A DNA stretch of 64,000 nucleotides from a virus. Shown in pieces: positions 17,150-63,298 of this stretch. The translations under genes were made by a program, and so were the position numbers. Where the stretch lies: UHGV virus genome UHGV-1366171; one strand, given 5' to 3'. Position 1 is the first letter of the stretch. Each line of letters starts with the position of its first letter. Below the pieces are notes generated by a model. The model was not told the DNA's origin and did not search any database. It worked only from the letters and a program-made list of their open reading frames with translations.

Positions 17150-17406
17150 AATACCCGGAAGAAATGTATTTAGACGCAGGGCTGTATGATGGCGACATGG
17201 ATTGTGATGTGGAACACCGCAAAGAAAAAATAGTGAAATGTAGGAAAGAACATAAATGTTCTGTGTGTCAAAGCACGATAAATAAAGGTGACAGGGCGTT
17301 ATATGAGAGCGGCTTTATGGATGGTGAGCCTGTTAGTAGTTATACATGCCTGAAATGTATAGAAAATTGGCTGGAAGAATCTGGTCAAGTGGAGGTAGAG
17401 GAATGA
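17146..17406 (+). CDS. Zinc-ribbon hypothetical protein
   Basis: CRKEHKCSVCQ ... CLKC; overlaps the next start in ATGA. Confidence 0.35.
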   Translation: MKYPEEMYLDAGLYDGDMDCDVEHRKEKIVKCRKEHKCSVCQSTINKGDRALYESGFMDGEPVSSYTCLKCIENWLEESGQVEVEE

Positions 17407-17900
17407 CAGAGAAAGATTGTATTCGTGATGTTATAGGGTATGAGGGACTGTATACAGTTAATGTTTTAGGCGAAATATATAGTGTAAAAAGTAAAAAGAA
17501 ATTGTCTCCATGCGTTAATAGATTTGGGTACATGAATGTGTGTCTATACAAGAATGGAAAACAAAAAACAGAAAAGGTTCATAGAATAGTTGCTAGCGCT
17601 TTCATACCCAATCCATTGAATAAAACACAGGTAAACCATATTGATGGAAATAAGAAAAATAATTGTGTATGGAATTTGGAATGGAATTATTGTTCGGAAA
17701 ATGCACGCCATGCATTTGCGGTAGGACTAAGAAATGGAGTCGGTGTAAGAATTGTAGAAACTGGACAGGAATTTTCAAGTATATCCGAATGTGCTAGGTC
17801 GATAAATGGAAGTGACGCAAATATAGGAAAATGTATTACGGGAGAAAGAGATACTCATAAAGGTTTTCACTTTGAAAGGATAGAAAATTATGGGAATTGA
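17403..17900 (+). CDS. HNH homing endonuclease (NUMOD4 + HNH_3)
   Basis: IGYEGLYTVNVLGEIYS (NUMOD4) and VNHIDGNKKNNCVWNLEW (HNH); start MTEKDC overlapping the upstream stop. Confidence 0.75.
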   Translation: MTEKDCIRDVIGYEGLYTVNVLGEIYSVKSKKKLSPCVNRFGYMNVCLYKNGKQKTEKVHRIVASAFIPNPLNKTQVNHIDGNKKNNCVWNLEWNYCSENARHAFAVGLRNGVGVRIVETGQEFSSISECARSINGSDANIGKCITGERDTHKGFHFERIENYGN

Positions 17901-19450: not shown

Positions 19451-20029
19451 TTGAAAGAAGAATGGAAATGGATAAAAGGTTACGAAGGAAGATATGCCAT
19501 TTCCAACATGGGAAGGTTGAAAAGTTATCTAAAAAATAAAAATGGAATGGTTTTATCGCAGACTAATCAATTTGGGTGGTATTTTACAGTCGTTTTGAAA
19601 GATAAGTATGGAAAATCATCAACAAAAAGAATTCATGTTCTTGTTGCTGAACATTTTATTGGAGAAATTCCAAAAGGTTATCACGTTCATCATAAAGACG
19701 GAAACAGGCAAAACAATGTGGTTACAAATTTGGAAATTATACATCCAGCAAAACATTATAAAGAGACTCTAAAAACAAATCCTCAGATTGTATCAGGAAT
19801 GAATCATTATAATCAGTACGAAAGACCAAGAGAAATTTTGATGTTTGATAAAGATGGTAATTACTTAGCTTCATTTCCAAACTCAAAAATTGCAGAAGAA
19901 ATAACTGGTGTGTGCCATAGAAATATACTTCAGGTTGCAAGTAAAGATGAATACAAACCAGGAAAGATACGGAGCACAGCCGGAGGGTTTATCTGGAAAT
20001 TCAAAGATGAAAGCGAGGTGGTGCAGTAG
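19451..20029 (+). CDS. HNH homing endonuclease (NUMOD4 + HNH), TTG start
   Basis: IKGYEGRYAISNMGRLKS and HHKDGNRQNNVVTNLEI. Confidence 0.7.
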   Translation: MKEEWKWIKGYEGRYAISNMGRLKSYLKNKNGMVLSQTNQFGWYFTVVLKDKYGKSSTKRIHVLVAEHFIGEIPKGYHVHHKDGNRQNNVVTNLEIIHPAKHYKETLKTNPQIVSGMNHYNQYERPREILMFDKDGNYLASFPNSKIAEEITGVCHRNILQVASKDEYKPGKIRSTAGGFIWKFKDESEVVQ

Positions 20030-23522: not shown

Positions 23523-23537
23523 AATGGAGGTGTTCTA

Positions 23538-23903
23538 TTGGAAATCTGGAAAGATGTTATTGGAGCGGAAGAATTTTATGAAATAAGTAGTTTAGGTAGA
23601 ATACGAAATAAAATAACAAAAAATATATTGAAACCATCTAAAAGCGGAAAATATAGACACATTCAATTAAAATACGGTATAAACAAAAATGTGCTAATAC
23701 ATAGATTGGTTGCCGAAGCATTTATACCAAATCCATTTAATTTCAGGTGTGTAAATCATATTGATGAAAACAAAGAAAATAACAGTGCTGATAATTTGGA
23801 ATGGTGTACATATCAATATAATTGCAAATATGGAAAAGGAGCTTTGAAAAGAAATTCAAAGATTATACAGTATGATATGTGTGAGAATGCAATTAAAATA
23901 TAG
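23538..23903 (+). CDS. HNH homing endonuclease (NUMOD4 + HNH), TTG start
   Basis: IGAEEFYEISSLGRIRN and VNHIDENKENNSADNLEW; RBS GGAGG. Confidence 0.7.
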   Translation: MEIWKDVIGAEEFYEISSLGRIRNKITKNILKPSKSGKYRHIQLKYGINKNVLIHRLVAEAFIPNPFNFRCVNHIDENKENNSADNLEWCTYQYNCKYGKGALKRNSKIIQYDMCENAIKI

Positions 23904-24054
23904 GAAAGTATAAAAGAAGCCTCGGAATCATTGGGATTATTATATCAAGGAATTTCTATGTGTTGTAGAAACAAGCGTAAAACATGTGGTGGTTATATGT
24001 GGTCGTTTGCTTCGTTAGAAGATGTAAGAAAATATTCTGAAAAGAGGTGGTTTG

Positions 24055-36539: not shown

Positions 36540-36838
36540 ATGTAACACAATATATAGTTTAAATCAGATTTATAATGCTATATATTGATTGTTACAATGT
36601 AAAAACAGGGTACACTTTGATTTTACAGTTAGATATTGATTTATTTTTGTGCAATATGACAATAAAAATAGTGCTAAAGAATACGGCAGAGGGGAGCATT
36701 GACAGCTTGACAGATGGGACGGGGTCTAAAACAGATCAGCCGCACCGCCCAAATGACCTCTAAATCCGCCCCAAAAAGAAAAAAGACCGTTTTAAGAATA
36801 CTGGATTCCATTTTTCCCGAAAAATAAAAAAGAGCCTG

Positions 36839-37000
36839 TTATTTATCAACAGACTCAAGATACATTGCAATAGCTTTATCAAATAATTTGCTTAATGGTA
36901 TTCCAGTTTTATCAGAATAATCCTTTAGTTTTTGATACAATTCCTTGTCAATGGCAGTAGATATAGCGGTTCTGTTTTTAAGACCTCTGTTTGTAGTCAT
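36839..37000 (-). CDS. Ribbon-helix-helix (CopG/Arc-like) regulator, copy 1
   Basis: MTTNRGLKNRTAISTAIDKELYQKLKDYSDKTGIPLSKLFDKAIAMYLESVDK; RBS GGAGGTG; divergent from the serine recombinase; about 75% identical to the copy at 46914-47075. Confidence 0.55.
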   Translation of the reverse strand: MTTNRGLKNRTAISTAIDKELYQKLKDYSDKTGIPLSKLFDKAIAMYLESVDK

Positions 37001-37124
37001 AAGATACACCTCCTTTTGAAAAAAGTATATTATATCTTTCAATTTATTTCAATAAATACTTGATTTTATTTTCAAAAATGATATAATTGAAAGTAGTTGA
37101 AATAAACTTAAAGGAGATGTTTTT

Positions 37125-37724
37125 ATGAAGATTGGCTATGTCAGAGTATCAGCAGCAGACCAGAATGTGGCAAGGCAGATTAAAGCTATGCAGGAAGAAG
37201 GCGTGGAGAAAATATATATAGATAAGCAGTCAGGAAAAGACTTCAACCGTCCAGAGTACAAGAAAATGATTTCTAGCCTAAAACATGGAGATGTCCTTGT
37301 ACTTCATTCAATAGACAGGCTTGGAAGAAACTACGAGGAAATTCTTGAACAATGGAGGATTATCACAAAAGAGATCAAGGCAGATGTAATTGTTCAAGAT
37401 ATGCCGCTCCTTAATACAACAATTTCAAGAGATTTGGACGGAACCTTTATAGCAGATTTGGTACTCCAGATATTATCTTATGTTTCTGCAAAAGAGCGTG
37501 ACAACATAAAACGTAGACAGCGTGAGGGTATCGCCATTGCGAAAACACAGGGGAAATACAAAGGGGGAAAATCGAAAAGGATTGACGAGCAATTATTTAC
37601 TGAAAATCTTGTAAGATACAGAAATGGAGAAATTACAAAGTTTCAATTTGCAGTAAATATTGGTGTATCAAGACCGACACTTGACAAAATTATTAAAGAA
37701 CGGGAGGAAGCGAATAATGATTGA
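37125..37724 (+). CDS. Small serine recombinase (resolvase/invertase family)
   Basis: MKIGYVRVSAADQNVARQ ... LVLHSIDRLGRN, with the catalytic Ser in the YVRVS motif and a C-terminal HTH. Confidence 0.85.
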   Translation: MKIGYVRVSAADQNVARQIKAMQEEGVEKIYIDKQSGKDFNRPEYKKMISSLKHGDVLVLHSIDRLGRNYEEILEQWRIITKEIKADVIVQDMPLLNTTISRDLDGTFIADLVLQILSYVSAKERDNIKRRQREGIAIAKTQGKYKGGKSKRIDEQLFTENLVRYRNGEITKFQFAVNIGVSRPTLDKIIKEREEANND

Positions 37725-38178: not shown

Positions 38179-38450
38179 AATTTTACCACAATTTTCGCCT
38201 ACCGGCAAACACATCAGATAAATTCTAATTCACTTACAAAAGATAAAGCCCATTCGGGTGAATAATTCCACAAAAGATAAAATCGGGCAATCCGAAAAAA
38301 TTCCAAAAACAAAAAACGAGTTACGTCAACCGCAATTTTGGATATGACCCCTAATCATAAAACCTATGGCGTAATGTATTATGTTTCCTGAACTGCAATC
38401 TATTAAGCGTATAATTTGGGATTATAAAAGCGAAAAAACAGGAAATGTTT

Positions 38451-38523
38451 GGGAATATAGCTCAGCCAGGAGAGCACATGACTGTTAATCATGTTGTCGA
38501 AGGTTCAAGTCCTTCTGTTCCCG
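38451..38523 (+). tRNA. tRNA-Asn (anticodon GTT)
   Basis: Manual fold: acceptor GGGAATA/TGTTCCC, D-arm GCTC-AGCCAGGA-GAGC, anticodon stem CATGA/TCATG with loop CTGTTAA, T-arm GAAGG-TTCAAGT-CCTTC, discriminator G. Confidence 0.8.
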
Positions 38524-38870
38524 TTTTGGTTCTCATACAGCAGAATGAAGATGTGTCATTGGTTCAAGTCCAATCATTCCTGAAATGGAATGTCGCCCAG
38601 CTGGTAGGGCAATCTATTTATATTTTGAGAACTGTAAAAAACAGAGGTACGCAGCAACAGCAATGACTTAATGGCAAATGATTTGTATGCAAAACAAAGA
38701 AAATACGGTTCGATTCCGTGAAATATGCGTACTGTAAAAACAACTAAAAACCTATGTAACGCCAAACAGCAATTTATTCGCTTAAAAAAGCATATTGGTT
38801 CAACTCCAATCGTATCCGTGGAGGATATGCCCTAGTGGTCAAGGGAAATTGGCGTAATGAAAGGAGATTT
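38524..38870 (+). ncRNA. Array of partial tRNA-like modules (candidate Y-RNA-like / YrlA-like RNA) between tRNA-Asn and the Ro60-like gene
   Basis: No ORF on either strand. Contains a T-arm CATTGGTTCAAGTCCAATCATTCC (38555-38580), a D-arm-like GTCGCCCAGCTGGTAGGGCA (38591-38610), T-arms ACGGTTCGATTCCGT (38716-38730) and ATTGGTTCAACTCCAAT (38794-38810), and a repeated ACTGTAAAAA(A)CA. Confidence 0.4.
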
Positions 38871-38872
38871 TT

Positions 38873-40327
38873 ATGAATTTTTCAGATGTAATGAGAGAAG
38901 AAAGCAAGTGGACAAAGACCGAGAACGGAGCAGACGCAAAGAATACTACGGATTCTGCTTTGCTGGATATGTTTGCGACTATCGGTGCCATGCGTACCAG
39001 ATCAGAGGATGAGATTGTCAAGAAATTTGAGCTGGCATTTCAGGAAGACTCGTTAGGCGCTATGCGTTGCCTGTTCTATGCCAGAGACATTCATGGAGGT
39101 TTAGGCGAGCGCCGTGTGTTCCGTGTTCTTTTGACATACATAGCAAATAAGCATACAGAAGAATTAAGAAAGAACATAGATAAAATACCAGAATACGGAC
39201 GCTGGGACGACGTTTATTCTCTCGTCGGAACGAAATTAGAGGATAATATGTGGGATGATGTAAAGTATCAACTTTTAAAAGATAAAGTATTGATGAAGAA
39301 TGAAGAGTCGTCTTCCCTTCTCGCTAAATGGCTCAAAAAGGCTGATGCTTCTAGCCCGAACACTCGGAAACTGGGAATTTATACGGCAAAGAAGTTAGGA
39401 ATGTCCGTATATGACTATAAACGTCTTTGTAATCGCCTGAGAAAGCATATTGATGTTGTGGAGCAGCGCATGTCGGCCCGCCAGTGGGATACCATTAATT
39501 ATCCGGCGGTTCCATCCAGGGCAATGATGAATTACCGAAAGGCATTTGCTCGTCACGATCAGGAACGTTTTGAAGAATATATAAACAAAGTTTCCTCTGG
39601 CGAACAGAAAATCAATGCAGCCACTCTTTATCCGTATGACATTGTTGAGAAAATTTTGTATCACAGTGAGAATAGCAAGGTTCTGGAGGCTCAATGGGAT
39701 AATCTGCCAAACTACGTTGATGGAGATGTAAACGCAGTGGTTATGGCGGATGTGTCAGGCTCCATGTATGGCAGACCGATGGCAACCTCTATTGGACTGG
39801 CAATGTACTTCGCAGAGCGAAACAAAGGTGCATACCATAATCTGTTTATGACATTCTCTGGTCGCCCGAAGTTCGTGGAGATAAAAGGAAATACCATAAC
39901 TCAAAAAATCAACTTCATTTCAAGAGCAAGTTGGCAGATGAATACAGACCTTGAAGCTGCCCTGATGAAGATTCTGGATGTGGCGATTGAAAATCATTGT
40001 TCACAGGAAGAAATGCCGAAATCTCTCATTATCATTTCAGATATGGAGATTGATTGCTGCACAAACCAGAAACATAGAGAGAATTTCTACGATTATGTTT
40101 CCAGAGTATATAAGGAACATGGGTATAAAATCCCGAATGTAGTTTTCTGGAATGTTAATAGCAGGCATGATGTATTTCTGGCAGATAAGAACCGAAAGGG
40201 TGTGCAGCTTGTTTCTGGACAGTCCGTAAGCACATTTAAAAACCTGATCGGTTGCGTGGATAAGACACCGGTTGAAATGATGTATTCCGTCCTGAACAGT
40301 GACCGCTATCAGGCGATTCAGATTTGA
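38873..40327 (+). CDS. Ro60/TROVE-like protein with C-terminal von Willebrand A domain (DUF2828-like phage Ro homologue)
   Basis: About 280 aa alpha-helical N-terminal region; then a vWA with MIDAS motif AVVMADVSGSMYG ... SLIIISDMEID; position and architecture match bacterial/phage Rsr-like proteins that sit next to tRNA-like Y RNAs. Confidence 0.55.
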   Translation: MNFSDVMREESKWTKTENGADAKNTTDSALLDMFATIGAMRTRSEDEIVKKFELAFQEDSLGAMRCLFYARDIHGGLGERRVFRVLLTYIANKHTEELRKNIDKIPEYGRWDDVYSLVGTKLEDNMWDDVKYQLLKDKVLMKNEESSSLLAKWLKKADASSPNTRKLGIYTAKKLGMSVYDYKRLCNRLRKHIDVVEQRMSARQWDTINYPAVPSRAMMNYRKAFARHDQERFEEYINKVSSGEQKINAATLYPYDIVEKILYHSENSKVLEAQWDNLPNYVDGDVNAVVMADVSGSMYGRPMATSIGLAMYFAERNKGAYHNLFMTFSGRPKFVEIKGNTITQKINFISRASWQMNTDLEAALMKILDVAIENHCSQEEMPKSLIIISDMEIDCCTNQKHRENFYDYVSRVYKEHGYKIPNVVFWNVNSRHDVFLADKNRKGVQLVSGQSVSTFKNLIGCVDKTPVEMMYSVLNSDRYQAIQI

Positions 40328-44078: not shown

Positions 44079-44167
44079 TTGGGCTATCGCCAAGCGGTTA
44101 AGGCACCGGGCTTTGACCCCGGAAGAGAAGGAACGCTCTTTACGCTGGTTCGAATCCAGCTAGCCCA
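44079..44167 (+). tRNA. Class II (long variable arm) tRNA with apparent anticodon UUG; identity ambiguous (Ser/Leu-type body, Gln anticodon)
   Basis: Acceptor TGGGCTA/TAGCCCA, D GCC-AAGCGGTTAA-GGC, anticodon stem CCGGG/CCCGG with loop CTTTGAC, 21-nt variable arm, T-arm GCTGG-TTCGAAT-CCAGC, discriminator G. Confidence 0.5.
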
Positions 44168-44390
44168 GTTGGTTTCTGATTTTGGCATAGAAACTTTCTC
44201 CACCACCTACGGCGCAAGGCTGTGACAAAAGGAGATTCAAATGCTCCGGGTGGTTTTGTCCGACTACTGTTTGAGGACGTAAAATAAAAGAACAGCGTGT
44301 AGATTGGCGGTAAGGCGATACGATTCTAAATACCGCATGGTGCCTAAAGCAGCACGATAAATAATGCAAAAACGGGAGAAATCCCGTTAC

Positions 44391-44464
44391 GGATCATTAG
44401 CTCAGATGGTGAGAGCCGTTGCCTCATAAGCAGAAGGTCGTAGGTTCGAGTCCTACATGATCCA
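44391..44464 (+). tRNA. tRNA-Met (or Ile-lysidine), anticodon CAT
   Basis: Acceptor GGATCAT/ATGATCC, D GCTC-AGATGGTGA-GAGC, anticodon loop CTCATAA, T-arm GTAGG-TTCGAGT-CCTAC. Confidence 0.7.
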
Positions 44465-44523
44465 TTCCGCCATAGCTAGTACCCTTTGGCTGTCAGGTAC
44501 GGCAGCGGCTATGGTAGGAACCA

Positions 44524-44607
44524 CGAGACGTAGCTAAATTGGCAGAGCACTGAAAGCCGGATACAACTATGTACAGAAGACGGCGGTTCGAATCCGCCCG
44601 TCTCGAT
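44524..44607 (+). tRNA. tRNA-like gene, 84 nt, with good acceptor and T-arm but unresolved anticodon arm
   Basis: Acceptor CGAGACG/CGTCTCG and T-arm GGCGG-TTCGAAT-CCGCC are perfect; the 32 nt between D-arm and T-arm cannot be folded into a standard anticodon arm. Confidence 0.35.
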
Positions 44608-44801
44608 TTTACCACTTAGCAGGATGGGTATACCTGCTACGAAATCCTGTGAAAAAACTTTTCTAGAGAGATAAGACCAAAGGTCGTGAGGAGCAGTAGT
44701 CGGTGATTCTGGAAGATTCCCGGAAGTATGAGATGCAAAACGCCGTAAGTCTGTGGTACCTGCGACACGTTAATTGCATGGTGGTTTTATAAGGGAATAC
44801 G

Positions 44802-44874
44802 CCGATATAGTTCAATGGTAGAACGCTACACTTGTAATGTAGATGCTATTGGTTCGAGTCCGATTATCGGCTTT
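44802..44874 (+). tRNA. tRNA-Thr (anticodon TGT)
   Basis: Acceptor GCCGATA/TATCGGC, D AGTTCAATGGTAGAAC, anticodon stem CTACA/TGTAG with loop CTTGTAA, T-arm ATTGG-TTCGAGT-CCGAT. Confidence 0.75.
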
Positions 44875-45362
44875 CGTATGGAGACTTGTGCAGATACCAA
44901 TTCGCGGAATGGCAAACAGAAACTAGTGCTCTATACGTAAATTACAGCAATTCAGATGGCCGGTACATCGGCGGCGCAATAAGCCGTGAATGGTTGCTGA
45001 TAAGACTGAGATCCAGGAACTAAGGCGCGTATAATGTTGCCTGGAGGGAAAATATCAAATGGGTTTGGCCACCAGGAGATATGTTTTTCGGTAAAGTGCG
45101 GGGGTATTTTATCATGCTCAGTCTTTAATCTATCTGCCAAGTGCAGAAAAGGAATCCGGTTTTCGTATGACGATTACTGGTTTTAGCTCATGTACCAAGT
45201 GCACAAGGAGCATTCGACGCAGATGATGATAAAATATGCGTTTGAGGTGAAAATCAACCTATGCAGTCTGCGGATTGCATAACCGTGATAGGCGATATTA
45301 TATACCGGCATCGTTTGAAAAGAAATCCGAGTAAAAGCCAACTTTTCTTACCTTGTCGGTTC

Positions 45363-45438
45363 CGGGATGTAGCGTAGTTTGGTAACGCGCCTAATTTGGG
45401 ATTAGGAGATCGTCGGTTCAAATCCGGCCATTCCGGTT
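45363..45438 (+). tRNA. tRNA-Pro (anticodon TGG)
   Basis: Acceptor CGGGATG/CATTCCG (one GU pair), anticodon stem CCTAA/TTAGG with loop TTTGGGA, T-arm GTCGG-TTCAAAT-CCGGC. Confidence 0.7.
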
Positions 45439-46631: not shown

Positions 46632-46867
46632 ACAAGAAAGTGATAGGAATTGTACTGATTTTGGCAATCTGCTTTGGATTGACGGGGTGCATAAAAGGAA
46701 ATAGACTAGAAAACCAAGAAAACACATCTTGGTATGGCATATTAAATGATGGTTCTTGCTTTGTATATACATTTAAAGATGAAGAAACGGGAGTATGGTA
46801 CATTTCAACATCTGAAGGCATCACGCCAAGATTGAACGCAGATGGAACATTGTATGTGAGTGAATGA
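46628..46867 (+). CDS. Putative lipoprotein
   Basis: Signal peptide with lipobox LTGC (MNKKVIGIVLILAICFGLTGC). Confidence 0.45.
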   Translation: MNKKVIGIVLILAICFGLTGCIKGNRLENQENTSWYGILNDGSCFVYTFKDEETGVWYISTSEGITPRLNADGTLYVSE

Positions 46868-46913
46868 ACCTGTAAGGATTTCTTACAAGTTGGGAGGAAA
46901 AGATAAAAGCCCG

Positions 46914-47075
46914 TTATTTTCCAACGGACTTTAAATACATATCAATAGCTTTATCAAGTAATTTGCTTATGGGAATAGATGTTTCTTCCGAATAAGATTT
47001 TAAACGAGAATATAGTTCTTTATCAATAGCGTTAGATATTGCTATGCGATTTTTTAAACCACGATTTTCTTGCAT
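46914..47075 (-). CDS. Ribbon-helix-helix regulator, copy 2 (53 aa, below the track cutoff)
   Basis: Minus-strand translation MQENRGLKNRIAISNAIDKELYSRLKSYSEETSIPISKLLDKAIDMYLKSVGK; paralogue of 36839-37000; divergent from TnpB. Confidence 0.5.
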   Translation of the reverse strand: MQENRGLKNRIAISNAIDKELYSRLKSYSEETSIPISKLLDKAIDMYLKSVGK

Positions 47076-47099
47076 ATAGAATCCTCCTTTGATTTGATA

Positions 47100-48757
47100 A
47101 TTATATCATATCTTTCAACTACTTGCAATTCAGTTTTAAATATGATATACTACAAGCAGTTGAAAGTAGTATTCTAAAAGGAATGTGGTTTAATGAATGA
47201 AGAAGATAAGGGAGACCAAGAAAGGATGCTAAAGAGTTACAAGACGGAAATCAATCCAACTATGGAACAAATACATAAAATCAATAAAACAATTGGCACT
47301 TGCCGTTTTGTATACAACTTTTATCTTGCCCGCAACAAAGAAGTTTATGAAAAAGAGAAGAAATTTGTATCTGGAATGGAGTTCTCAAAATGGCTAAATA
47401 ATGTTTATTTAAAAGAGAATCCAGAGTATGTATGGATAAAAGAGGTTAGCACAAAATCGGTAAAACAAAGCATTATGAATTCCGAAAGATCTTTTAAGAG
47501 ATTCTTCAAAGGACAGTCCGGTTTTCCTAAATTCAAGAAGAAAGGAAAATCGGATGTAAAAATGTATTTTATGAAAACAAATTCTCAGACAATAATAACA
47601 TGCGAAAGACACCGAATCAAAATATCGACACTCGGATGGGTTAGATTAAAAGAAAAGGGATATATTCCTTGGGATTCAAATACTTACATTATCAAGAGTG
47701 GTACTGTTTCTTGTAGAGCTGGACGATATTATGTATCAGTCTTGGTTGAGCAACCAGAAAGAGAAAGACTACAATTACAAGATTTTGGATTTGGAATTGA
47801 CCTTGGTGTTAAAAATTTTGCGGTTATAAGCAATGGGCTTGTAAAGAAAAACATCAATAAAACAAATAAGGTAAAAAAATTAGAAAAACAACTAAAACGA
47901 GAACAACGGTGTCTTTCTAGGAAATACGAAAGTTTAAAGAAGAATAATAAGAAAGGAGAGTCTTCCAGAGAAAATATTCAAAAACAAATATTAAAGGTGA
48001 AAAGGCTTTATTGCAGGATAGACAATATCCGCACTGACTACATCAATAAAACAATAGCTGAGATTGTGAAAACCAAACCATCTTATATCGCTGTTGAAGA
48101 TTTGAATGTATCAGGTATGATGAAGAACAGGCATCTTTCGAAGGCTGTTGCATCACAAAAATTTTATGAATTTAGAGTGAAATTGGAAGCAAAATGCAAA
48201 GAATATGGAATTGAATTGAGAATTGTAGACAGATGGTATCCATCCAGTAAACTTTGCCATGAATGTGGTTGTATCAGGAAAGACTTAAAACTTTCTGACA
48301 GAGAATATGTGTGCGAATGTGGATATCATGCAGATAGAGATTATAATGCAAGTCTTAATTTAAGAGATGCCACATCCTACAAAGTAGCATAAACAAGCAT
48401 TTGCAGGTATGTACCGATGGCTAGTCGGGAATTGACGACTGTGGAGTGTACAAGAACTTGTGAGTAGTATCTGTATTTACTCAGGGCGAAAGCATATACA
48501 GAGAAGCAGTAAGAAATGTTCGCAAGAACTTTCAATATCTCGATATGGATATCTTTGTTCATATTTTGAGTAGCAGCCAAGCGTAAGCGGAGATTGAAAA
48601 ATTTTTATATTCACAGAATCGAGATGAAAAAATGTAAAACAAGCAAAATCTTCTATGTAAATAGAAATAGAAGTTAAGTAAAATAAGATGAAATAGTAAA
48701 ATGAGAGTCATTTGAGAGCCAAATTTCTTACTAAGTAGGGAAGGAGGCTCTTTTGTT
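47100..48757 (+). mobile_element. IS200/IS605-family TnpB-only element (IS1341-like) with downstream omega-RNA/right-end region
   Basis: TnpB ORF with no TnpA; 365 bp structured non-coding tail at 48393-48757 before the terminase. Confidence 0.45.
47193..48392 (+). CDS. tnpB: TnpB (OrfB) RNA-guided nuclease-like transposase accessory protein
   Basis: N-terminal OrfB_IS605 region; RuvC-like GIDLGVKNFAVISNG...AVEDLNVSGM; C-terminal zinc finger CHECGC...CECG. Confidence 0.8.
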   Translation: MNEEDKGDQERMLKSYKTEINPTMEQIHKINKTIGTCRFVYNFYLARNKEVYEKEKKFVSGMEFSKWLNNVYLKENPEYVWIKEVSTKSVKQSIMNSERSFKRFFKGQSGFPKFKKKGKSDVKMYFMKTNSQTIITCERHRIKISTLGWVRLKEKGYIPWDSNTYIIKSGTVSCRAGRYYVSVLVEQPERERLQLQDFGFGIDLGVKNFAVISNGLVKKNINKTNKVKKLEKQLKREQRCLSRKYESLKKNNKKGESSRENIQKQILKVKRLYCRIDNIRTDYINKTIAEIVKTKPSYIAVEDLNVSGMMKNRHLSKAVASQKFYEFRVKLEAKCKEYGIELRIVDRWYPSSKLCHECGCIRKDLKLSDREYVCECGYHADRDYNASLNLRDATSYKVA

Positions 48758-62792: not shown

Positions 62793-63037
62793 TTATTTTT
62801 CCACATTTTTATTGATAAAATCTTTAATCGCCATATCCAGTATTTTGCTAATCGGTATCATAGTTTTTTGAGAATAAGACTATAGATCGAATTGATGTAA
62901 ATGGAAACTATTGTCCGGAAAATTGTAGATGGGCCGATTGCGAAACGCAGAACTATAATAAAAGAGTCACAAGAAAAGTTGTTATTGATGGAGAAGAAAA
63001 GACTTTAAAAGACATAGAAAAAGAATACGGAATTTCT

Positions 63038-63298
63038 ATGTCAACACTGCGTACAAGGTATATAAGATACAAAAAAGGAATATACACAGTCTCAGATTTG
63101 ATTTCAAAGGATAAGATTTACAAACCACAAAAGAATAACACATTTATAGAAGTGGAAGGAATTACAAAAAGACTATGCGATTGGGAAAGGGAAACTGGAA
63201 TTGGGAGAAAAACAATTATGAATAGATATAAAAGAGGGGTTAGAGGGAAAGAACTTTTTAAACCAACATATACCAAAAAAGGAGATGGCGGTAATTAA
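63038..63298 (+). CDS. Hypothetical protein
   Basis: 86 aa basic. Confidence 0.3.
   Translation: MSTLRTRYIRYKKGIYTVSDLISKDKIYKPQKNNTFIEVEGITKRLCDWERETGIGRKTIMNRYKRGVRGKELFKPTYTKKGDGGN

Follow-up and report, generated by a model that had tools for sequence, protein, structure and literature searches.

The stretch of viral genome UHGV-1366171 analysed here (64,000 nucleotides, below called the window) carries two genes for similar Arc-like ribbon-helix-helix (RHH) proteins, RHH-A and RHH-B. Each is transcribed away from the gene of a DNA enzyme, a serine recombinase in module A and TnpB in module B. Each module probably consists of an autoregulated Arc-like repressor that restrains the divergent selfish DNA enzyme. 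The cassette comprises the RHH gene encoding 53 amino acids (aa), its own terminator and a control region of about 120 bp with two back-to-back sigma-70 promoters, and it recombines as a unit at the start codon of its cargo, the divergent gene. In Clostridia, Bacilli and their relatives it is usually seen on phages and plasmids, paired with TnpB or a free-standing homing endonuclease. The window comes from a temperate phage. Nearly all genes are on the plus strand. There are genes for a large terminase, an endolysin, RecT, a tyrosine recombinase and an S24 CI-like repressor, as well as six tRNA genes. RHH-A and RHH-B are two of the few genes on the minus strand. The two modules have the following parts.

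36839-37000, minus strand: RHH-A gene, 53-aa Arc-like RHH protein with the beta-strand LKNRTAISTAI; Pfam RHH_3, E 5.5e-16; phrog_3180.
37001-37124: control region A, with two divergent sigma-70 promoters (promoter scan) and inverted repeats.
37125-37724, plus strand: cargo A, 199-aa small serine recombinase of the resolvase/invertase type with an N-terminal catalytic domain.
46914-47075, minus strand: RHH-B gene, 53-aa Arc-like RHH protein with the beta-strand LKNRIAISNAI; Pfam and PHROG matches.
47076-47192: control region B, with a single palindromic -35 box TTGCAA (47123-47128) that serves both divergent promoters.
47193-48392, plus strand: cargo B, 399-aa TnpB with PF12323, PF01385 and PF07282; the core begins at residue 12 (47226).

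The first-pass annotation had proposed two RHH genes of 53 aa on the minus strand, and the open reading frames (ORFs), Pfam and PHROG matches agree with it. It had put their identity at about 75%; the proteins are indeed close kin, the measured value being slightly lower (38 of 53 positions, 72%; BLASTP E 4e-27). Both match Pfam RHH_3 (PF12651, E about 6e-16) and PHROG 3180, 'Arc-like repressor'. The AF2 model of RHH-B (mean pLDDT 79) has an extended N-terminus followed by helices 19-32 and 36-50. The best Foldseek matches of the model are mostly RHH proteins (CopG first, ORF56, PutA-RHH), none of them individually significant. No sequence similarity to solved structures was found, and what likeness there is to CopG and further RHH proteins lies in the fold. 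The 53-aa protein is a bare RHH core without a C-terminal toxin-binding tail. Among GenBank phages, the search for annotated close relatives of the whole region gave weak partial matches only.

Both control regions contain complete sets of promoter elements and operator-like repeats, and both RHH genes end in intrinsic terminators.

36832-36856, minus strand: intrinsic terminator of RHH-A; the stem reaches into the last codons, and a run of T comes after it.
37052-37047 and 37029-37024, minus strand: RHH-A promoter, -35 box TTGAAA and -10 box TATACT, 17-nt spacer (promoter scan).
37060-37065 and 37079-37087, plus strand: recombinase promoter, -35 box TTGATT and extended -10 box TGATATAAT, the spacing given as TTGATT-16-TGATATAAT.
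37052-37033, minus strand: left operator-like pair of module A, TTGAAATAAA then TTGAAAGATA, over the -35 box and spacer of the RHH-A promoter.
37087-37106, plus strand: right operator-like pair of module A, TTGAAAGTAG then TTGAAATAAA, abutting the -10 box and covering the expected recombinase transcription start.
46906-46932, minus strand: intrinsic terminator of RHH-B.
47105-47100, minus strand: -10 box TATAAT of the RHH-B promoter, 17-nt spacer, TG extension.
47146-47151, plus strand: -10 box TATACT of the TnpB promoter, 17-nt spacer, TG extension.
47128-47119 and 47118-47109, minus strand: operator-like 10-bp units of module B, TTGCAAGTAG and TTGAAAGATA.
47150-47159 and 47160-47169, plus strand: operator-like 10-bp units of module B, CTACAAGCAG and TTGAAAGTAG.

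Both cargo promoters have extended -10 boxes (TGATATAAT and TGATATACT). The terminator stems of the two RHH genes differ by compensatory changes (CTGTT/AACAG versus CCGTT/AACGG). In both modules the promoters are ringed by 10-bp units starting with TTGAAA or TTGCAA. An inverted repeat and a -10 element common to the two upstream regions had been noted earlier, and both are present: ATATCTTTCAA occurs without mismatches at positions 37032 and 47108 of the window and nowhere else in it, and the motif (A)GTTGAAAGTAGT is located at 37085 and 47158. This likeness is not a product of AT-rich low complexity, since the 64 kb contain three phased pairs TTGMAA-N4-TTGAAA, all of them within the two control regions, against 0.13 expected, and none of 100 shuffled sequences reached three pairs. 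In unrelated loci, too, the phased pair lies at a constant distance upstream of the RHH homologue. The repeat type TTGAAATAA is present in two copies in module A and absent from module B.

All loci have a common layout: the ribosome-binding site (RBS) and -10 box of the RHH gene, a -35 box, mostly TTGCAA, embedded in repeats, an extended -10 box and further repeats. This architecture is kept with HNH, GIY-YIG, LAGLIDADG and TnpB cargo. The sequence of the repeats shifts with the class of the RHH beta-strand.

Beta-strand LKNR[V/I]AISNAI (RHH-B type): operator TTGAAWGTA/TTTCAACTAC.
Beta-strand LKNRTAIST[A/S]I (RHH-A type): operator TTGAAATAA.
Beta-strand LKTRTP.SNA: operator GTCCTTG.
Beta-strand LKNRV[V/I]PNS: operator TGTCAATTGAC.
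Beta-strand LKNRTPISNAV: operator CTACWWGTAG.

Such covariation would be expected if the beta-ribbon reads the repeats. Module A holds two units of its own type and one of the B type, and therefore partial cross-talk between the two cassettes may be possible.

Comparison with related contigs defines the boundaries of cassette B.

46865-47202: cassette B block, comprising RHH-B, its terminator, the control region, the RBS and the first 10 nt of the cargo ORF, exchanged as a unit between related phages.

The relatives (L021-L028) have an RHH gene at the same place, whose product is 96% identical to RHH-B. At the DNA level the block is 93-94% identical to L021-L025, and the flanking phage genes are about 79% identical. 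The left edge is a sharp junction at TGAACCTGTAAGG, preceded by differing upstream genes. A short hairpin, TGTAAG-GATTT-CTTACA, is located at this edge (46868-46888), directly past the stop codon of the upstream gene; it may be a terminator or a hot spot of recombination. On the right, identity stops just past the common ATGAATGAAG, 10 nt into the cargo ORF. Beyond this breakpoint the relatives (e.g. L022:1631-3882) have genes for an HNH endonuclease of 159 aa and for an RNA-repair pair, RtcB with an RNA ligase. In the window the locus lacks this pair and encodes TnpB; similarity returns at 48703, shortly before the terminase gene. The large terminase adjoins cassette B, which lies on its upstream side, and is on the same strand as the cargo.

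TnpB starts with an 11-residue N-terminal extension, MNEEDKGDQER, opened by the start codon of the cassette; the extension is explained by the identity with the relatives running past this start codon. PDB structure 8iaz_A aligns from residue 12 (E 8e-169), and in this alignment TnpB keeps the motifs GIDLG, EDLN and DR..NA and the zinc-finger cysteines CxxC...CxC. The closest relatives of TnpB (65-74% aa identity) belong to IS607-type elements, in which a serine-recombinase gene tnpA overlaps the tnpB start; the tnpA products, found in many of the relatives and annotated as OrfA/resolvase, have the C-terminal sequence ...LYGLRKYKKQI.... Proteins of this IS607 type combine a MerR-like N-terminus with a serine catalytic domain. 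There is no tnpA in the window, where the RHH control region abuts tnpB. A putative 23-nt tnpA remnant at 47203-47225 scored no better than shuffled controls (best 11/500). Downstream of tnpB there is an omega-RNA, with a RAGATH-18 (RF03064) match of 62.2 bits at 48438-48512.

48393-48576, plus strand: omega-RNA scaffold, ending in ...TTTTGAGTAGCAG; in 22 TnpB loci the sequence is conserved as far as 48576.
48577-48592, plus strand: predicted omega-RNA guide CCAAGCGTAAGCGGAG, the first non-conserved bases past the scaffold.

Thus the description of TnpB as solo stood with respect to tnpA and failed with respect to the omega-RNA, which is fully retained. As judged from the sequence, cassette B is likely to drive an IS607-derived TnpB and omega-RNA that lost tnpA.

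The RHH gene as a part of the transposon of this TnpB lineage was rejected: among 78 viral loci with related TnpBs, an RHH gene was found in one, this phage's own contig, and 77 had none. RHH-B does not appear to lie within insertion sequence (IS) boundaries, as cassette B is common to the relatives with HNH and RtcB cargo. Pairs of RHH and TnpB recur elsewhere, namely in Bacillus phages and C. botulinum plasmids. No intron that would suggest a group I intron or IStron context was found by Rfam in the window at the gathering threshold, nor at 36-49 kb at an E-value threshold.

TnpB here looks like a recent swap of one selfish nuclease for another, not a domesticated function. The first-pass annotation had suggested domesticated use of TnpB by the phage, and several observations speak against it: the motifs and the omega-RNA are intact, the locus is that of a homing endonuclease, and the exact protein occurs on just four contigs of about 90 kb. 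Nor was a target of the guide found. Allowing up to three mismatches, neither the window nor any of about 260 fetched loci contains a second copy. Its 16 exact matches in IMG/VR are, apart from the phage itself, in unrelated GC-rich contexts, in which identity does not extend further. These look like chance matches.

In module A the cargo remained and the regulator was exchanged. The recombinase matches PF00239 in residues 3-145 (E 4.6e-28) and phrog_125, 'DNA invertase', in residues 1-197; its architecture, with 199 aa in total, fits small serine recombinases, which have a catalytic N-terminus, a short C-terminal DNA-binding domain and about 180-200 aa. Pfam and PHROG thus confirm both divergent cargo genes assigned previously, the serine recombinase and TnpB. 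A sister contig (L227, IMG/VR 143266) also has RHH-B with TnpB, and its recombinase is 99% identical by tblastn and 96.7% identical at the DNA level. There, identity begins exactly at the recombinase ATG; upstream of it is a divergent gene for a 72-aa helix-turn-helix (HTH) protein, and there is no RHH-A. Cassette A aligns with cassettes of the T/T RHH class that drive HNH-like nucleases elsewhere. Cassette A seems to be a paralogue that has replaced the HTH regulator in front of the recombinase, and its operator type (TTGAAATAA) has partly diverged. The exact RHH-A protein was found in 2362 index blocks, on contigs of up to more than 1 Mb, with the same recombinase adjoining it wherever the neighbourhood was shown. 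No convincing inverted-repeat pair flanking an invertible segment, and no convincing res/hix-type sites, were found at 30-46 kb.

Taken together, L021-L028 and L227 demonstrate both kinds of exchange: the same regulator is combined with different cargos, and the same cargo with different regulators. The idea of a portable regulatory cassette therefore holds in a broader form than proposed, with HNH and RtcB exchanged for TnpB under one RHH and with an HTH regulator exchanged for RHH-A. The survey of related phages indeed revealed cargo swaps, with the breakpoint 10 nt into the cargo ORF.

We collected 118 RHH homologues and considered their neighbourhoods on metagenomic contigs, in 80 IMG/VR loci and 23 genome loci, and in cultured phages and plasmids. 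In 78 of the 80 viral loci, the gene divergent from RHH encodes TnpB or a homing-type nuclease. Endonucleases of the phrog_374/3377/8790 type account for 48 loci and TnpB for nine; the other partners are HNH groups including NUMOD4/HNH_3, GIY-YIG, LAGLIDADG and one DUF723/phrog_559 nuclease. One partner has no recognised identity, and one locus has no ORF at this place. A serine recombinase was the partner in none of the 80. Some cassettes are inserted in the gap between terminase and portal genes, others separate terS from terL, split a minor-capsid gene or lie among tail genes; their hosts are Clostridia, Bacilli and streptococci. Among cultured phages, the cassette is present in Bacillus phages IEBH and LY4, with TnpB as cargo, in one phage of C. 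perfringens and in phages of S. thermophilus; C. botulinum plasmids have it as well. The RHH proteins of these plasmids whose genes are divergent from TnpB share 58-65% identity with RHH-B.

Several of these loci deserve mention on their own. On the C. botulinum plasmid p1BKT015925 (L265, NC_015417.1 21618-24860) the RHH and TnpB genes separate cas7 from cas5b in a type I-B CRISPR-Cas operon. In other gut phages (L013-L020, L032-L041; e.g. L013:1632-3928) an RHH and endonuclease cassette is inserted within a Phage_min_cap2 gene, giving separate N-terminal and C-terminal ORFs; no group I intron was found by Rfam at the gathering threshold in the loci with the split capsid gene. Several RHH copies per genome, some of them at contig ends, were observed in Acetobacterium fimetarium (L212-L214) and Clostridium sp. 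KNHs214 (L218-L219), which suggests IS-like elements bearing RHH.

The window itself contains a third, dead cassette.

62814-63298: dead cassette with a structural gene on either side; it has lost the promoter region and both N-termini by deletion, and the two C-terminal halves abut.
62814-62879, minus strand: C-terminal half of its RHH gene (tblastn with RHH-B, E 1e-4).
About 62867-63298, plus strand: C-terminal half of its phrog_374-type endonuclease (tblastn with cargo proteins, E 1e-12 to 1e-14).

Three NUMOD4/HNH_3-like endonuclease genes of the window, found by tblastn with the cargo of other loci, have no adjoining RHH gene (about 17346-17900, 19451-20029 and 23529-24020). Hence some homing-type nucleases of this phage do without a repressor cassette.

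The following mechanism may be suggested. RHH dimers would bind cooperatively to the TTGAAA-type units phased by 10 bp. One pair of units would cover the -35 box and spacer of the RHH promoter, and the other would abut the cargo -10 box, over the start site. The RHH protein would thereby silence both its own gene (negative autoregulation) and the divergent gene of the DNA enzyme. Upon entry into a cell without the repressor, a burst of the enzyme is likely, followed by low steady-state expression. We infer repression by RHH-A and RHH-B from the promoter and operator geometry, the covariation with the beta-strand and the published experiments on homologues. Likewise, DNA binding is probable by analogy with homologues tested by others, and the expression kinetics and the cross-talk between A and B are to be read as predictions.

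Several points weigh against the repressor model. Firstly, binding and repression by these two proteins are predicted from homologues, and the kinship to the experimentally tested Arc proteins appears to be indirect, via the C. botulinum RHH proteins. Secondly, some RHH proteins are activators, and the promoter geometry alone would be compatible with activation. Thirdly, the right-hand unit of module B, CTACAAGCAG, matches the repeat poorly. Fourthly, the table of beta-strands and operators consists of related sequences, uncorrected for kinship. Finally, the serine recombinase is an atypical partner (none of the 80 census loci), and thus module A could serve a phage-specific purpose.

In the strongest of the alternatives, RHH is a domesticated regulator of the phage life cycle, timing the recombinase, TnpB and perhaps the terminase or late operon in lysogeny versus induction, instead of serving selfish elements for self-restraint. 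The phage is temperate, as seen from the S24 CI-like repressor and the tyrosine recombinase; the pairing of RHH-A with the recombinase is widespread and stable (the 2362 index blocks); cassette B is directly upstream of the large terminase, with the cargo on the terminase strand; and in relatives the usual regulator of the recombinase is the HTH protein, which suggests that the phage needs this gene to be regulated. On the other hand, in many unrelated phages the cassette adjoins classical homing endonucleases between or inside structural genes, it also occurs inside a plasmid CRISPR operon, and this very phage has a decayed copy. Moreover, the TnpB version is rare, and no host or phage target of its guide was found. 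We consider this alternative unlikely.

Even less probable, to the point of being very doubtful, is that RHH acts as a type II antitoxin-like protein, directly binding and inhibiting the nuclease or recombinase. RHH proteins often are antitoxins, a complex of RHH and TnpB was modelled for an archaeal clade (Altae-Tran et al. 2023, PMC10691335), and RHH-A has a weak Pfam match to CcdA (E 0.008, below the cut-off). However, a single conserved interface between RHH and its partner protein is implausible, since at least six unrelated folds are represented among the partners (serine recombinase, TnpB, HNH, GIY-YIG, LAGLIDADG and the phrog_374 type). Further, the 53-aa core lacks a toxin-binding tail, the genes are divergent rather than co-transcribed, and the operator covaries with the beta-strand.

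The idea that the repeats are res/hix-like sites of the serine recombinase, with direct copies 10 kb apart by which 37-47 kb would be deleted or rearranged, has the least credit of all: although the recombinase gene adjoins one copy, the two copies point the same way and short imperfect palindromes are targets of small serine recombinases, the repeats occur in dozens of loci without a serine recombinase, coincide with promoter elements and follow the RHH sequence class. The repeats as recombinase sites or borders of an invertible segment were rejected, given that the 99%-identical recombinase of L227 has no such repeats upstream and no convincing inverted-repeat pair was found at 30-46 kb.

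The autoregulated Arc-like repressor, which we prefer, has direct counterparts in the literature. Arc-like RHH ORFs have been described in IStrons, and hundreds of homologues adjoin TnpB, homing endonucleases, other mobile elements and toxin-antitoxin (TA) systems (Zedaveinyte et al. 2023, PMC10690162). Moon et al. (bioRxiv, Sept 2026, 10.64898/2026.09.24.754181) located Arc by chromatin immunoprecipitation sequencing (ChIP-seq) on the bidirectional promoter of IS605-family elements and demonstrated repression of a red fluorescent protein (RFP) reporter, relieved by mutations in the beta-strand or in the motif. The Arc proteins tested include WP_094548610.1 (P. xylanilyticum) and WP_003367503.1; a C. 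botulinum Arc is among those tested. In the published model, two dimers bind per operator and the tnpB promoter is repressed; autoregulation is proposed (PMC10690162; 10.64898/2026.09.24.754181). As in these IS605/IS607 elements and IStrons, a small stand-alone RHH gene here is divergent from tnpB, and the -35 and -10 boxes of a bidirectional promoter are overlapped by oppositely oriented motifs. Unlike them, the RHH gene here is not demonstrably inside an IS: cassette B is shared with the HNH relatives, and 77 of the 78 loci with related TnpBs have no RHH. Other differences are that a tnpA-less IS607-derived TnpB is joined to the cassette start codon, that one copy precedes a resolvase-type recombinase, and that there are two paralogous cassettes with partly different operators plus the dead third one.

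P22 Arc and Mnt, CopG and omega of pSM19035 have the same fold (Foldseek CopG 2cpg/1ea4, PutA-RHH). The classical Arc, CopG and omega proteins recognise DNA by the N-terminal beta-ribbon, bind cooperatively to repeats phased by the helical turn over promoters and regulate their own genes. By analogy, the predicted autoregulated repressor matches this paradigm. At the same time, there is no detectable sequence similarity to solved RHH proteins and the operators differ; the classical proteins control lysis/lysogeny or copy-number genes, whereas here mobile DNA enzymes are involved.

The insertion of the cassette between or inside packaging and structural genes is typical of free-standing phage homing endonucleases (T4 seg/mob, I-HmuI-like, terminase-side HNH). 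The sharp edges, the patchy distribution among close relatives and the families (HNH, GIY-YIG, LAGLIDADG, NUMOD4/HNH_3) are also the same. Classical homing endonucleases are regulated by phage promoters, translational control or autorepression, and to our knowledge the free-standing ones have no dedicated divergent repressor gene. Here, in contrast, the repressor and promoter travel with the nuclease or capture it.

The C proteins of restriction-modification systems are similar by analogy: when a mobile element enters a new cell, the expression of its potentially lethal nuclease is gated by a very small DNA-binding protein that regulates itself. However, they are HTH activator/repressors co-transcribed with the nuclease, without homology to the RHH proteins, and a delay switch like theirs would be hypothetical here. 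Finally, in archaeal RHH/MazE-TnpB pairs a small RHH or AbrB-type protein is linked to TnpB. In that case the regulator is upstream in the same orientation, the catalytic site of TnpB is rearranged, and a TA complex was proposed (Altae-Tran et al. 2023, PMC10691335), whereas here the genes are divergent and the TnpB motifs are canonical.

Two other regions of the window may be noted. The tRNA-Asn gene (38450-38524) is immediately followed by a Y RNA-like YrlA match (38528-38636) below the threshold (43.3 bits versus the gathering value of 69, E 5.6e-7). After it, at 38873-40327, there is a gene for a 484-aa DUF2828/DUF7788/vWA protein. The region 38450-40327 could be a phage module of a Ro60-like protein and Y RNA. 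The tRNA cluster at 44079-45437 contains genes for tRNA-Gln, which is unusually long (91 nt), Met, Thr and Pro; an extra tRNA at 44524-44606 was identified by Rfam and is absent from the ARAGORN list.

Since the mechanism is published for related systems, the principle of the cassette is not new, and this locus adds comparative detail. What appears to be new is that the cassette boundaries are resolved to the base and that the swaps are reciprocal. Moreover, an IS607-derived TnpB has been captured at a locus of homing endonucleases, and a resolvase-type recombinase has acquired the cassette where an HTH regulator stands in the sister phage. The specificity classes of operators and beta-strands also seem to be an addition, as do two live cassettes together with a dead one in a single phage. 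A bolder generalisation is possible, if rather doubtful. Throughout the phage and plasmid mobilomes of Firmicutes, Arc-like cassettes may serve as a universal 'safety catch' that can be exchanged, recombining at the cargo start codon so that any class of selfish DNA enzyme could be swapped in (HNH, GIY-YIG, LAGLIDADG, PD-(D/E)xK-like, TnpB, resolvase). TnpB here, having replaced a protein-only homing endonuclease, would then be a programmable homing nuclease acting between co-infecting phages, and the diverged operators TTGAAWGTA and TTGAAATAA would insulate the two cargos from each other.

The locus would provide a natural phage-borne case in which a 53-aa repressor keeps TnpB and other selfish nucleases in check, and it clearly demonstrates that the repressor and its promoter move as one module. 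The operator classes, tracking two or three residues of the beta-strand, could yield orthogonal pairs of repressors and promoters, and could help to predict the regulation of TnpB systems developed as genome editors. The replacement of the HNH homing endonuclease by TnpB at one locus, under one promoter, speaks for TnpB being in function a homing endonuclease that can be programmed, and points to competition between phages as the setting in which this may be tested.

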